Below are positions 1 to 8,247 of a stretch of DNA of 8,247 nt, piece after piece; position 1 is the stretch's first letter; every line of letters begins with the position of its first letter. The position numbers were made by a program, and so were the translations under genes. The stretch comes from a virus. Its lineage: Duplodnaviria > Heunggongvirae > Uroviricota > Caudoviricetes. The notes beneath the pieces are model-generated. The model saw nothing but the letters and a program-made list of their open reading frames with translations. It made no database searches and was not told the DNA's origin. Location: IMG/VR virus record IMGVR_UViG_2740892270_000011; one strand, given 5' to 3'.

Positions 1-61
1 CATCAGATGGCTGCTTAAAAAAAGAACAAATGGTAGTGTCCGCTATTGCCAGTACACCTCA
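1..61. repeat. Left arm of a perfect 61-bp inverted repeat (partner 8150..8210); abuts the window edge so may extend further left
   Basis: Reverse complement of 1..61 equals 8150..8210 at 61/61 positions; identity breaks at 62 versus 8149. Confidence 0.9.
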
Positions 62-203
62 GGGTATAAGGGGTTATGGCCACCGGACTACCAAACGGCT
101 GCCAGCCCTCTTTCAGTTTATGTGTCAGCTTTTCCGCAAGATCTGACGGCGGCGCCGCCCTGACAACATCATAGTGTTTAAATGCCATGGTTCTTTCCAC
201 CAT
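15..203 (-). CDS. Small late-region phage protein, 57-62 aa, resembling the DUF1737-type proteins found just upstream of lysis genes; start is ATG at 203 or more likely ATG at 188
   Basis: Open frame with TAA at 15..17. Sequence MAFKHYDVVRAAPPSDLAEKLTHKLKEGWQPFGSPVAI fits the DUF1737 pattern as recalled (Y.VV...LE..L.EGW.P.GSP); not verified. Weak SD-like GGTGGAAAG precedes the ATG at 188. The last 14 codons and stop lie inside the inverted repeat. Confidence 0.5.
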   Translation of the reverse strand: MVERTMAFKHYDVVRAAPPSDLAEKLTHKLKEGWQPFGSPVAITPYTLRCTGNSGHYHLFFF

Positions 204-448
204 CTGAAAAATAATTCTTTAAAATACCTGACATGTAATACAGAAAAAACACAAAACCATACCTTAAATAAAAACCTGATTATCAAGCAGATATGCATGG
301 ATAAACTACAAGACGAGATATAAACCACCCTGCATTTAAATAAACAATAAACAACATCAGAAAAATAATTCTGCTCTATGGTTTACATTCAAAAATATCA
401 TTTATACTTTTCAGAACATCACCAGCAAGGCATAAACAAGGAAACTAA

Positions 449-784
449 ATGAAGTGGATTGTGATTGATACAGTTATCCAGCCATCATGCGGAATATCTT
501 TTTCAGTCATATGGAGTAAAATAAAATTAATAATCTGGTATCAATCGGATGCTTTCTTACCTCCTGAAAGTATATTTACACTGACTCACACAGGCATCAT
601 GCTCAATAACAAAGTGCTACCTGTAACCATTTACAACGTAGTACCATTCAATAAAACATTCTGGAATTCAATCAAAAATAGCCAGGAATGCCCTACAAAT
701 ACAGATAACGTATTGAATGAATGCTTTAATAACCGTTGCACTCTGCAAATATGTCCTTATGGACTAAAACAACAAAGTCCATAA
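449..784 (+). CDS. Hypothetical 111-aa protein in an AT-rich island, with a C-terminal Cys pattern C-x10-C-x4-C-x4-C; no family recognised
   Basis: SD AAGGAAA (438..444) lies 4-6 nt before ATG 449. A 111-codon open frame is unusual in DNA this AT-rich. Opposite strand to the late operon. Confidence 0.4.
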
Positions 785-787
785 GGA
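754..787. repeat. 12-bp perfect inverted repeat (tccttatggact / agtccataagga) with a 10-nt spacer, spanning the last codons and stop of ORF 449..784
   Basis: Direct reading: 754..765 is the reverse complement of 776..787. Confidence 0.7.
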
Positions 788-804
788 GTTTACTCACATC
801 TGAC

Positions 805-840
805 AAAATCAATATAAACAGCCCCTCCGGAGAGGGGCTG
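805..840 (-). terminator. Candidate intrinsic terminator for minus-strand transcripts (9-bp GC-rich stem, 4-nt loop, then a T-rich tract)
   Basis: Stem cagcccctc (819..827) pairs with gaggggctg (832..840). On the minus strand it is followed by TTTATATTGATTTT. Confidence 0.35.
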
Positions 841-1079
841 GAGAGTGGCGCTATGTGCCATTGCATGGTGCCGGGTGCCTCCCGGTGAATTCAGTACCAG
901 CACCTGAATCCGCGATTATCCCATATACCTACTCGCTGATTGCCCCTCCGCACAGGGGGATTCACCATGCCAGTTTCTTTTAACAAACTCCCCGCAAAAC
1001 AGACAACTGTCAACCGTCTGAATTGTGAAGTATTTAAAAATTTCTCCCGCTAACTGATACCCGGCTAACAGTCTGGCGT

Positions 1080-1329
1080 NNNNNNNNNNNNNNNNNNNNN
1101 NNNNNNNNNNNNNNNNNNNNNNNNNNNNNNNNNNNNNNNNNNNNNNNNNNNNNNNNNNNNNNNNNNNNNNNNNNNNNNNNNNNNNNNNNNNNNNNNNNNN
1201 NNNNNNNNNNNNNNNNNNNNNNNNNNNNNNNNNNNNNNNNNNNNNNNNNNNNNNNNNNNNNNNNNNNNNNNNNNNNNNNNNNNNNNNNNNNNNNNNNNNN
1301 NNNNNNNNNNNNNNNNNNNNNNNNNNNNN
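1080..1329. other. Run of 250 N (masked or unsequenced); hides the 3' part of the ileZ-like tRNA
   Basis: Literal n characters. Confidence 1.
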
Positions 1330-3283: not shown

Positions 3284-3360
3284 TGGCGCGCTGTACTGGA
3301 TTCGAACCAGTGACCGATTGCTTAGAAGGCAATTGCTCTGTCCGGCTGAGCTAACAACGC
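3284..3360 (-). tRNA. tRNA-Arg with anticodon UCU (reads AGA), the argO/argN-like rare-codon tRNA typical of lambdoid late regions
   Basis: Minus-strand 77-nt cloverleaf: acceptor GCGTTGT / ACAGCGC, D-arm GCTC..GAGC, anticodon stem ATTGC / GCAAT with loop CTTCTAA, T-arm ACTGG-TTCGAAT-CCAGT, encoded CCA. Confidence 0.85.
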
Positions 3361-3399: not shown

Positions 3400-3659
3400 N
3401 NNNNNNNNNNNNNNNNNNNNNNNNNNNNNNNNNNNNNNNNNNNNNNNNNNNNNNNNNNNNNNNNNNNNNNNNNNNNNNNNNNNNNNNNNNNNNNNNNNNN
3501 NNNNNNNNNNNNNNNNNNNNNNNNNNNNNNNNNNNNNNNNNNNNNNNNNNNNNNNNNNNNNNNNNNNNNNNNNNNNNNNNNNNNNNNNNNNNNNNNNNNN
3601 NNNNNNNNNNNNNNNNNNNNNNNNNNNNNNNNNNNNNNNNNNNNNNNNNNNNNNNNNNN
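3400..3659. other. Run of 260 N (masked or unsequenced) between the tR'-like terminator and tRNA-Arg; could hide further tRNAs
   Basis: Literal n characters. Confidence 1.
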
Positions 3660-3833: not shown

Positions 3834-4164
3834 CGGAAAAATCAACCTTGTTACCTAGTTACCTTTTTTANNNNNNNNNNNNNNNNNNNNNNNNNNNNNN
3901 NNNNNNNNNNNNNNNNNNNNNNNNNNNNNNNNNNNNNNNNNNNNNNNNNNNNNNNNNNNNNNNNNNNNNNNNNNNNNNNNNNNNNNNNNNNNNNNNNNNN
4001 NNNNNNNNNNNNNNNNNNNNNNNNNNNNNNNNNNNNNNNNNNNNNNNNNNNNNNNNNNNNNNNNNNNNNNNNNNNNNNNNNNNNNNNNNNNNNNNNNNNN
4101 NNNNNNNNNNNNNNNNNNNNNNNNNNNNNNNNNNCGGAAAAATCAACCTAGTTACCTTTTTTAA
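3834..4164. repeat. Near-identical direct repeat immediately flanking the N block 3871..4134 (copy 1 at 3834..3870, copy 2 at 4135..4164)
   Basis: Both copies read cggaaaaatcaacc-tagttacc-tttttta. Copy 1 carries an extra ttgttacc 8-mer. Copy 2 is in-frame coding sequence of the Q-like gene. Confidence 0.8.
3871..4134. other. Run of 264 N (masked or unsequenced); hides the 3' end of the Q-like gene and any late promoter
   Basis: Literal n characters. Confidence 1.
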
Positions 4165-4965
4165 CTGCCGCTCAGCCCATGCTTCTTCAATATCAAACCG
4201 AGTCACCAGCGCATCATAGAATTTCTTAACTGTTTTTTCCCATGACGCGCGTGTTATCTGGTTTGTCACCTCGCATATAGCATTAAATGCCTCCGTTGAT
4301 GGTAGTCTTTCATAGCCACGACCACCACAACGCTGGCAGTCTCTGATAACAGGCATACCACGTTTTACCGACTCTTCACGATGAATGGCGACACCACGCC
4401 CACGGCAATCCTTACAGGCGGTGGAAACCTCACCCTTTCCGCCACACTCCGGACAGGCAACTTTTACCACCTCCCTGACTTTTTTCCATTCTTCCCAGTA
4501 AGACGGATACACACCTTTCGTACACTTTGCCCATACCGGCGGCTTACCATCCGGATACTGGATCTTGTTTGTAAAAACCTCGCTTTCAATAAATTTTTTT
4601 CCGTGACAGCAGGGGCACTGTTTTTTGCTCGCCGCGCTACGGGCATAATCTTCAAACGCATACGAAGCCATAATACGCATCACTGCCGGTTTTATTTCTG
4701 CCGGGAGTTTTCTTAACGCCGCCACGCGATCACACCGACTGAGTGCATATTCTGTCAGCAATTCTGTTGCCCGCTCTCTGTCATTCATACTAATGCCCAT
4801 TTTCCCAAGGAACGCAGAAACCCCCATCTCAGCCCGATTCTGTGTCATGCCCTGCGCGGCCATCACATCAGTGATACTCAGCGCATCTTTCGACGTTGAG
4901 GCCGATGCATCAGTCAGGCCGGGGGATTTTGGGGAGTAGTATTTCGGTAAATCTTCCAGTTTCAT
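4135..4965 (-). CDS. Q-like late antiterminator with a DnaJ-type zinc-finger module; 277 codons visible, 3' end inside the N block
   Basis: Four CxxCxGxG repeats (CPCCHGKK, CPECGGKG, CKDCRGRG, CQRCGGRG). N-terminus MKLEDLPKYYSPKSP resembles Q proteins of Qin-type prophages as recalled (unverified). Start ATG overlaps the rusA stop (ATGA). Sits in the canonical Q slot between rusA and the terminator/tRNAs. Confidence 0.65.
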
Positions 4966-5253
4966 TTTTTGACCTGCCCTTCAAGCATTATGGGATAAAT
5001 CTTCACCCCCAGACGTCCACCAGATACTGGCTGAGCACGAACGATATTGATTTCATCAAACTGCTCATCGTCCATTAGCAACCCCGCATGCGTCAGCGCA
5101 TCCAGCGGCGCTTTCAGAATATTGTCCAGGTCACGGCGGCGCTTATCCGGTGGTTCTGCAATAATTTTTATTGCCAACCTTCCGGACAGGCTTAATTTCA
5201 GCCGCTGCTGGCGAACAATAAGCGCCACTGCCCGGCGATAACGCTCCCCGGCT
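4962..5253 (-). CDS. rusA: Holliday-junction resolvase RusA; C-terminal 97 aa visible, 5' end inside the N block
   Basis: PDKRRRDLDNILKAPLDALTHAGLLMDDEQ...GGRL matches the RusA catalytic core of E. coli RusA ([30 protein letters not shown], from memory). Stop TGA at 4962..4964. Confidence 0.85.
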
Positions 5254-5503
5254 NNNNNNNNNNNNNNNNNNNNNNNNNNNNNNNNNNNNNNNNNNNNNNN
5301 NNNNNNNNNNNNNNNNNNNNNNNNNNNNNNNNNNNNNNNNNNNNNNNNNNNNNNNNNNNNNNNNNNNNNNNNNNNNNNNNNNNNNNNNNNNNNNNNNNNN
5401 NNNNNNNNNNNNNNNNNNNNNNNNNNNNNNNNNNNNNNNNNNNNNNNNNNNNNNNNNNNNNNNNNNNNNNNNNNNNNNNNNNNNNNNNNNNNNNNNNNNN
5501 NNN
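5254..5503. other. Run of 250 N (masked or unsequenced); hides the rusA start and the end of the DUF968-like gene
   Basis: Literal n characters. Confidence 1.
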
Positions 5504-6407
5504 CAGCCTTTGTTCCCATCCCTCCCAGTCCATGACCAATGATGTGATGCGGATCATCTGCCTGATTGCCACACGTCATGCATTTCTGCGTTTTTACCCA
5601 GCGCGTGTATACAGGCATCTCTTCCCGTTGTGATTTCTGGCGCTGGAGATACTGAGCCGGTGACTCCGGATCAACGGCAATGCTGACCACCGTCTTTTCC
5701 TGTGGTGGGTTCTGTTGCTGGTGGACGTGAGGCAGTAACGCAATATTTTTTGTGCGCTGCTTCAGTATGCTGGTGGCTGTCTGCTCTCCCGGTATGATGT
5801 CGCTTTCACTGTACACAGAGCGAATTTTTTCCGCACGCAACCCCAGCGAACGACGTAATACCGCTTCCGGTAGCGCGTCCGCCACCTGATTGCGGACCGC
5901 CCACCAGGATAATTCAGCCAGAGATAATTCACGCTCCTGCGTACCGCTTATTGCGTGACCGATGACGTCAATCATCCATGCTGACAGGTTTTGATGAGCA
6001 AGTTGCTCGAGTGATTCGGATGTCTGGTCACGCAGCTGGTTGTCGCAGTGCCAGCACAACACCATTGCGCCGGTACCATAACGGTGAATGACGGTTTCGC
6101 TGTGATGATAATCGCCGTGTGGCCACTGGCAGGATTTAATATGGCGCAACAGCCAGTCAGACAATGCACCAGCACCACCAGCAGCACGAATCACCCGTGC
6201 GTTACTGAAAAACGGCAGCAATGTTTTGTCTTCCACCAGCGGCTGGCGAGCGGCAGGAACGACCCCGGACGGCAGATTACGCATGCTTTTTGGTTCCGGC
6301 TCCACCAGTATTCTGCCGTTATGGAATGCTGACATTGATTCACGGCCTGGCTTAACGATAACCAGACCGAGTTCCGGTACCAGAACAGGTCGAAGTAATA
6401 CCCGCAC
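5504..6407 (-). CDS. Lambdoid nin-region protein, DUF968/YdfU-like (family name from memory); 301 codons visible, 3' end inside the N block
   Basis: Long open frame starting at GTG 6407 behind GGAGG. Cys/His cluster CMTCGNQADDPHHIIGHGLGG just before the N block. Position immediately upstream of rusA. Confidence 0.65.
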
Positions 6408-6984: not shown

Positions 6985-7140
6985 TTACTCCTCAGGTTCG
7001 TAAGCTGTGAAGACAGCGACCTCCGTCTGGCCGGTTCGAATTCGTACCTCGCAGAGGTCTTTCCTCGTTACCAGTGCCGTCACTATGACGGTTAAACAGA
7101 TGACGATCAGGGCGATTAACATCGCCTTTTGCTGCTTCAT
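6985..7140 (-). CDS. hok: Hok-family type I toxin (51 aa, single transmembrane helix); an in-frame upstream ATG at 7197 would give a 70-aa mok-like extension
   Basis: MKQQKAMLIALIVICLTVIVTALVTRKDLCEVRIRTGQTEVAVFTAYEPEE carries the Hok signature (LTRK.LCE.R, EVA.F.AYE). SD AAGGAG lies 9 nt before ATG 7140. Leader resembles hok mRNA leaders as recalled. Confidence 0.85.
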   Translation of the reverse strand: MKQQKAMLIALIVICLTVIVTALVTRKDLCEVRIRTGQTEVAVFTAYEPEE

Positions 7141-7188
7141 AGCCTGCTTCTCCTTGCCTTTCGGCACGTAAGAGGCTAACCTAGATTT

Positions 7189-7260
7189 GCCGTTCATAGA
7201 TTGAGCCTCAGATTAATGTTAAGCGTCTTGCCGGACGCGTAATGTTAACTGGGGCTTTTC
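7189..7260 (+). ncRNA. Candidate Sok-like antisense RNA opposite the hok leader and mok-like start; boundaries approximate
   Basis: Plus-strand promoter-like TTGCCT (7154..7159), 17-nt spacer, TAACCT (7177..7182) lies inside the hok 5' region in the position expected for sok. No clean terminator found. Confidence 0.25.
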
Positions 7261-7316
7261 TCTATCTGCCTTTTGGTGTTCATGCCTGAGACAGATAGCC
7301 TCAAGCACCCGCTGCA

Positions 7317-7950: not shown

Positions 7951-8181
7951 TTAACCCGCAGTGCTTTCAACTGATGAGGGGAACAAAATCTTTTCATCAA
8001 ACCCTGCATTCATATCATGAACAGCAACACACCAATCCATCGACGAACGATTATCAAGAGCCTCCATGATTTCATCCATGCGGCGTAGGTCATACAGGTA
8101 AATGCTTTTATCGCCAATGGTGTAAAAGCCAATTTTTTTCGGTGATGGATGAGGTGTACTGGCAATAGCGGACACTACCAT
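7951..8181 (-). CDS. Hypothetical ORF76; its first 10 codons lie in the right arm of the inverted repeat, so it may be a truncated or chimeric gene
   Basis: Open frame whose TAA stop (7951..7953) sits inside the SD region of gene A, an operon-like arrangement. No clear SD before ATG 8181; coding quality uncertain. Confidence 0.35.
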   Translation of the reverse strand: MVVSAIASTPHPSPKKIGFYTIGDKSIYLYDLRRMDEIMEALDNRSSMDWCVAVHDMNAGFDEKILFPSSVESTAG

Positions 8182-8210
8182 TTGTTCTTTTTTTAAGCAG
8201 CCATCTGATG
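8150..8210. repeat. Right arm of the perfect 61-bp inverted repeat (partner 1..61); carries a detached copy of the 3' end of the DUF1737-like gene
   Basis: Plus strand here encodes ..RCTGNSGHYHLFFF* as at the left arm, but the frame is closed by TGA at 8143..8145 just upstream. Confidence 0.9.
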
Positions 8211-8247
8211 ATATTTTTCCCTGAAGGCTGCCGGGGAGATATTCCCC

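Follow-up and report, generated by a model that had tools for sequence, protein, structure and literature searches.

An iraL anti-adaptor gene in the AT-rich cargo region of an IS600-bracketed lambdoid-prophage remnant

IraL was described as the fourth RssB anti-adaptor by Hryckowian et al. (2014, mBio 5:e01043-14, PMC4045071), who reported its gene to be enriched in Shigella. [quoted passage not shown] A later paper gives the locus tag of CFT073 iraL as c1429, and published RNA-seq or proteomic work on CFT073 shows a signal for this gene, which rises in a fur mutant and on a temperature shift from 23 to 37 C. Two further anti-adaptors, IraD and IraP, also inhibit RssB and so stabilise sigma-S, each answering to its own inducing signal; both are unrelated to IraL in sequence and in fold. 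IraM (YcgW) of K-12, in contrast, has 61% protein identity to IraL and shares its family model (NF007393), its fold and its four-cysteine tail, while IraL has four added C-terminal residues (QQSP). The iraM gene adjoins e14, outside any lambdoid late region, and its upstream region is unlike that of iraL; it is induced by PhoP/Mg2+, as Bougdour et al. 2008 are said to have found. IraM contacts both domains of RssB, whereas IraL is reported to bind the N-terminal domain only. A more remote likeness, in fold only, is to PmrD (PDB 4HN7, 2RQX), which has 14-19% identity to IraL, acts on PmrA instead of RssB and is without the four-cysteine tail.

By its location, iraL also belongs with the lambdoid morons (stxAB of the Stx phages, bor). 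It shares with them the cargo site downstream of Q and the tRNA genes and upstream of nanS-p/DUF1737 and holin, where the Stx phages carry stx and nanS-p, as well as an atypical composition and a benefit to the host instead of a phage function. Unlike stxAB and bor-type morons, it stands on the opposite strand, so that it cannot be expressed by read-through of the late operon, and it depends on its own constitutive promoter.

We analysed one stretch of tailed-phage DNA of 8,247 nucleotides (the window). An earlier note, made from its letters alone, had drawn attention to a markedly AT-rich island at 204..800 that holds a 111-codon plus-strand open frame with a good Shine-Dalgarno sequence, and had suggested an independently expressed moron of foreign origin. 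That frame is iraL, a gene already known, described and tested in 2014. The island comprises the following two parts:

204 to 448, no strand assigned: AT-rich spacer that separates iraL from the divergent DUF1737 remnant, with the iraL promoter within it; 28.6% GC; 99% identical to the upstream region of CFT073 iraL.
449 to 784, plus strand: iraL coding sequence, ATG start, 111 amino acids and a TAA stop codon (782-784); it encodes an IraM/IraL-family anti-adaptor of RssB.

The compositional claim is borne out by our counts. GC content is 32.3% over 204-800 and 50.0% in the remaining unmasked window; along the sequence it drops to 27-35% between about 200 and 800 and is about 50% to the left and right; the iraL frame itself has 34.5% GC, and its GC3 is 0.33 vs 0.60 in the adjoining methylase gene. 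The frame starts with ATG, and the Shine-Dalgarno sequence that had been noted is AAGGA (438-442). Three other open frames in the island, at 125-328 (minus strand), 174-323 (plus strand) and 726-866 (minus strand), are without any support and were treated as chance frames.

The identification as iraL rests on several concordant comparisons. Gene, promoter, mapped transcription start and downstream hairpin are the same as in CFT073, with about 99% DNA identity over window positions 59-1079, the homology beginning at 59. The protein is identical to CFT073 IraL at 110 of 111 residues (S74 here, L74 in CFT073). Hryckowian et al. (2014) separated iraL from iraM by a nucleotide identity to CFT073 iraL of 95% or more over the whole coding region and of 96% or more in the promoter/regulatory region; the coding region in the window has 2 substitutions in 336 nt, and positions 316-448 (-100 to the ATG) agree at 131 of 133, the only differences being at -1 (A415 here, G in CFT073) and in the 5' UTR (T446 here, C in CFT073). 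The NCBIfam model NF007393, 'anti-adapter protein IraM', is matched at 162 bits (cut-off 121; E 4.7e-48) by residues 1-110, aligned to profile positions 1-113 of 114, and IraL matches phrog_4407 over its full length at 240 bits. That PHROG is still labelled 'unknown function' in PHROGs v4, despite the characterisation of IraL in 2014. A Pfam scan of the 111-residue protein found no family, returning only a chance match to Nairovirus_NSm (E 0.056).

The gene is widespread. Of 5426 complete E. coli genomes searched by megablast with window positions 1-1079, 1374 matched over 80% or more of the query, and in these matches the frame is always annotated 'anti-adapter protein IraM' and lies between DUF1737 and DUF3927 genes. 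The frame is conserved in 1446 of the 5426 genomes (best iraL match there, 99.4%) and in relatives across the Enterobacteriaceae. Since NCBI annotation names iraL (as IraM) in more than 1000 E. coli genomes, we attach no weight to the identification as a discovery. It is useful for calibration: from the letters alone the earlier note had recognised a prophage cargo gene with transcription of its own and had set the start within a few bases of the mapped site, though it named neither the gene nor its function. An exact protein look-up returned the allele as 'MULTISPECIES: IraM [Shigella]', on at least 999 contigs; Shigella is fixed for the exact window allele, whose identity fits both the IS600 ends of the window and the published enrichment of iraL in that genus. 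The serine at codon 74 (window 668-670) is thus the form of the Shigella-wide allele. [quoted passage not shown]

The surroundings of the gene are those of a reduced prophage, with the following supported features:

1 to 61, no strand assigned: IS600 (IS3 family) terminus, the perfect reverse complement of 8150-8210; the window edge truncates the left arm.
15 to 203, minus strand: divergent DUF1737 open frame (Pfam PF08410, E 1.5e-15), what remains of the N-terminal part of a nanS-p-type esterase gene.
3284 to 3360, minus strand: tRNA-Arg.
6985 to 7197, minus strand: Hok open frame (Pfam PF01848), in a hok/sok type I toxin-antitoxin module at 6985-7310.
7135 to 7310, within the hok/sok module: sok antisense RNA (Rfam RF01794, 112 bits).
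8150 to 8247, no strand assigned: the other IS600 terminus, in inverted orientation to that at 1-61; it matches at 100% within features that carry the annotation 'IS3-like element IS600 family transposase'.

The window contains a mosaic of genes from lambdoid prophages: an 8.1-kb prophage remnant between two inverted IS600 copies, inside which iraL and its promoter are intact. The CFT073 prophage, of which the window prophage is by comparison a reduced piece, and phage vB_EcoS-640R1 both have the order Q, tRNA(s), small open frames, iraL (on the opposite strand), DUF1737, holin, lysozyme and Rz; in CFT073, too, DUF1737 lies on one side of iraL and STnc100, DUF3927, tRNAs and Q on the other. 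The right-hand side of the window keeps this order, with STnc100, tRNA-Arg, an N6/N4 methylase, Q, RusA, DUF968 and hok/sok. IS600 cut the DUF1737 gene on the left, whose full-length homologues are annotated as NanS/SASA esterases, after about 48 codons at 59-61, and its PHROG matches are confined to residues 1-49; the last approximately 15 codons of the open frame are read from the IS600 end. In CFT073 the nanS-p-type gene is truncated at the same point, with other sequence beyond. The same IS600 bracket surrounds the iraL segment in E. coli ECMA0423 (4987-5085 and 11700-11797), and recombination between the IS600 copies could invert the segment. Five blocks of about 250 nt are masked with N in the window (1080-1329, ~2620-2890, ~3400-3650, ~3870-4130 and ~5255-5495); the genes they interrupt are Q, those at the DUF968/RusA junction and, probably, additional tRNA genes, and open frames fused across them, such as 4962-6407, are masking artefacts.

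In lambdoid prophages, and in genomes deposited as phages, iraL takes the position expected of a moron, lying in the CFT073 prophage and in phage vB_EcoS-640R1 between Q/tRNA and DUF1737-holin-lysozyme-Rz and outside the functional modules of the phage, and it has the composition of one (32.3% vs 50.0% GC; GC3 0.33 vs 0.60). All other supported genes of the window (the DUF1737 remnant, STnc100, tRNA-Arg, the methylase, Q, RusA, DUF968 and hok/sok) are on the minus strand. The statement in the earlier note that the frame opposes the whole late operon holds for the genes of the window and for the intact relatives; the lysis and structural part of that operon is absent from the window. The broader suggestion of an independently expressed foreign moron is supported by a published promoter of its own, by the prophage cargo site, by the opposite strand and by the AT-rich composition.

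The signals for expression of iraL lie within the spacer:

382 to 387, plus strand: best -35-like hexamer, TTTACA, at a short 15-nt spacer from the -10.
403 to 408, plus strand: -10 hexamer TATACT of a sigma-70 promoter, 7 nt 5' of the published start; the choice of hexamer is our own reading of the sequence.
416, plus strand: iraL transcription start from published 5' RACE, giving a 33-nt 5' UTR (416-448).
438 to 442, plus strand: Shine-Dalgarno sequence AAGGA, 6 nt 5' of the ATG, read from the sequence.

The 5' end of the CFT073 iraL mRNA was determined by 5' RACE in LB log phase as ACATCACCAGCAAGGCATAAACAAGGAAACCA, starting ACATCACCAGCAAGG (PMC4045071). It matches window positions 416-447 with one difference (T446 for C), so that the 5' end that had been predicted at 415-420 coincides with a mapped one; in the complementation construct of the same paper, too, the leader stops at '+33', ahead of the ATG. 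In K-12, sigma-S is raised by a fragment that spans -100 to the gene end (PMC4045071), and iraL therefore carries its own, self-sufficient promoter. The -35 element is weak or unusually spaced; a generic promoter scan requiring a 16-18 nt spacer did not find the iraL promoter because the spacer of the best -35 is 15 nt. Since iraL rises in the CFT073 fur mutant, we also looked for a Fur box upstream of the gene; the best match (11/19) was reached by 959 of 1000 shuffles, and the site was rejected. Above chance is a 21-nt direct repeat at 198-218 and 352-372, CA(C/A)CATC(T/A)GAAAAATAATTCT, identical at 19 of 21 positions, a match reached by 0 of 200 shuffles. One copy overlaps the start codon of DUF1737 and the other covers -64 to -44 in the promoter region of iraL; the two may be a pair of regulator sites.

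The 3' end of the gene lies close to a convergent small-RNA gene:

754 to 787, plus strand: perfect inverted repeat, arms 754-765 and 776-787 of 12 bp with a 10-nt loop, spanning the stop codon; RNA folding energy -16.7 kcal/mol.
810 to 999, minus strand: STnc100 prophage sRNA gene (Rfam RF02076, 133.6 bits vs a gathering threshold of 47, full length), convergent with iraL.
840 to 819, minus strand: STnc100 terminator hairpin, then TTTATATT; a terminator-like site from the scan.

The 12-bp perfect inverted repeat around the gene end was described correctly: its arms are 100% complementary and the TAA lies inside it. When 150-1079 was shuffled 2000 times, only 5 of the shuffles gave a perfect 12-bp inverted repeat with a loop of 3-60 nt. 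The hairpin is not a canonical intrinsic terminator, because it is followed by GUUUACUC and not by a U-tract, and a terminator scan found no canonical plus-strand intrinsic terminator after iraL; it may define the 3' end of the mRNA or stabilise the mRNA. Other iraL alleles keep it, with one G-U and one terminal mismatch variant, which says little given their overall identity of 98-99%. In K-12 iraM the same CPYG codons carry another palindrome, GCCCATATGGGC, and a canonical terminator stands separately further downstream, so that the hairpin of iraL is not a feature of the family. On the 3' side of iraL we found only two hairpins, the U-tract-less 754-787 and the convergent STnc100 terminator at 819-840, which lies 35 nt beyond the iraL stop codon; the iraL and STnc100 transcripts may overlap at their 3' ends.

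The published activity of IraL can be placed on a structure. Residues 1-78 match PDB 8TWD (IraM(1-78) bound to RssB) at E 6e-31, and the AF2 model of the window protein, made with a 50-sequence alignment, reaches a pLDDT of 84.8 and has the fold of IraM(1-78) in 8TWD: an antiparallel beta-barrel with a beta-hairpin and one alpha-helix. This run supersedes an earlier one with a 16-sequence alignment (pLDDT 59.9), in which Foldseek matched 8TWD weakly. Among the contact clusters of IraM as defined by Brugger et al. [quoted passage not shown]

Taken with the published work, these observations make it almost certain that iraL is a horizontally acquired cargo gene of lambdoid prophages in E. coli and Shigella, with its own sigma-70 promoter starting at 416 and a product that blocks RssB and stabilises sigma-S. 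Transcribed from that promoter apart from the phage late operon, the gene would supply IraL protein in the lysogen during exponential growth. The IraM/PmrD-type beta-barrel and helix would dock on the receiver (N-terminal) domain of RssB, most likely occluding, by analogy with IraM, the same alpha4-beta5-alpha5 face that sigma-S needs. RssB so bound would be unable to hand sigma-S (RpoS) to the ClpXP protease; sigma-S would live longer, and the general stress regulon would be partly on even in log phase. We infer that the copy in the IS600-bracketed remnant is expressed as well. No observation contradicts the identification, which is limited by the serine at codon 74, the -35 element, the lack of a canonical plus-strand terminator and the location of this copy in a remnant between IS600 ends.

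Alternative readings differ from this one in regulation, in target or in the state of the gene. As a member of the same protein family (NF007393), iraL might behave like iraM, silent in rich medium and induced through PhoP/PhoQ on Mg2+ starvation, and a PhoP-box-like direct repeat, TGTTTA-N5-TATTTA, does lie at 337-353 on the minus strand, 63-79 nt upstream of the start, with 11 of 12 specified bases. An equally good match, however, occurred in 62 of 1000 shuffles of the AT-rich spacer, so that the box is not above chance and is a weak lead only; the upstream regions of iraL and iraM have no alignable sequence in common; and the iraL start was mapped, and the deletion phenotypes were seen, in LB log phase. 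We regard this kind of regulation as improbable. That IraL could be a PmrD-like connector whose true target is a response regulator other than RssB is very improbable: its published partner is RssB, the sigma-S phenotype is specific to the RssB pathway, the RssB-contacting residues of IraM are conserved in IraL, and the Pfam model of PmrD (PF11183) does not match IraL at E <= 1, the distant relatives scoring 12-18 bits against a cut-off of 21.2. A precomputed PF11183 tag on IraL homologues was not reproduced at threshold.

The IS600 ends on both sides and the truncated DUF1737/nanS-p gene alongside might suggest that the window copy is a decaying, unexpressed relic, or even a chance frame in AT-rich DNA. 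Against this, the open frame, Shine-Dalgarno sequence, -10 and start-site region are intact, with the agreement at 131 of 133 positions extending over -100..+33; Shigella is fixed for the exact allele, and in S. sonnei, which carries this allele, deletion of iraL has a phenotype; and the frame is conserved across genera down to 20% identity. We consider both readings extremely unlikely. The small size and the cysteine-rich tail might also suggest a peptide that is secreted or sits in the membrane, for example a toxin or bacteriocin-like product, and the earlier note had allowed for a signal peptide. The N-terminus is instead the first strand of a cytoplasmic beta-barrel, residues 1-78 forming the RssB-binding barrel in the crystal structure of the homologue, and among the family matches none points to export; export of this protein is scarcely conceivable.

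The C-terminal part of the protein carries a conserved motif:

689 to 763, plus strand: C-terminal motif C-P-x9-C-x4-C-x3-I-C-P-Y-G, codons 81-105; conserved in the 50-member alignment.

The earlier note had seen in the translation the ending C-x10-C-x4-C-x4-C, and the cysteines are indeed there, as C81-x10-C92-x4-C97-x4-C102, after which the product ends in PYGLKQQSP. A word-indexed search for relatives gave only 20 clusters, all Escherichia-like; an exhaustive profile search gave 97 hits, of which about 50 span the full length with 20-40% identity; and a related-locus search seeded with close relatives gave loci of Escherichia, Shigella and Citrobacter only. The distant relatives that NCBI names IraM come from Salmonella salamae, Citrobacter, Enterobacter, Klebsiella pneumoniae, Cronobacter, Kosakonia, Intestinirhabdus and Dryocola. 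In an alignment of 50 sequences, chosen for full-length coverage and therefore favouring intact tails, the only invariant columns are C81, C97 and C102 (50 of 50, down to 20% identity), followed at 98% by C92, P103, P12 and W72; C92 and P103 are thus identical in 49 of the 50. IraL has the family form of the tail, C-x10/11-C-x4/5-C-x4-C-P-(Y/F)-G, at C81, C92, C97, C102 and P103. The looser pattern C-x8-18-C-x4-7-C-x4-C is present in 40 of 52 hits of full-length size; most of the 12 others are visibly frameshifted, and two differ slightly in spacing. Mean conservation is 0.44 in the tail vs 0.46 in the barrel, but no residues in the family are more conserved than the cysteines.

The structural paper on IraM and RssB treats this part differently: residues 79-107 were deleted from the construct as proteolysed and were called less conserved and flexible, full-length IraM being proteolysed in the tail and insoluble on purification. 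Our literature search found no paper discussing these tail cysteines. The conserved cysteine tail may be a new point, the structure having been obtained with a tail-less construct and the tail labelled as less conserved. Our tentative proposal, to which we give rather less than an even chance, is that the four-cysteine tail (81-105), far from being a dispensable flexible appendage, is the most constrained part of the family and forms a metal or cluster site, or a redox switch, by which the anti-adaptor is controlled in vivo in its stability or activity. The candidate role is backed by the invariance of the cysteines and by the AF2 model, in which the tail reaches a pLDDT of 65-73 with the 50-sequence alignment vs less than 50 in the 16-sequence run. 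Proteolysis of the IraM tail and the insolubility of the full-length protein fit a metal or redox reading without proving it.

The iraL gene illustrates how a prophage can rewire a core stress pathway of its host through one small added protein. The cysteine tail is a point of interest for the groups that study RssB anti-adaptors: if the proposed role is true, anti-adaptors of this family would have a post-translational input, hidden from the structure because the construct was tail-less.
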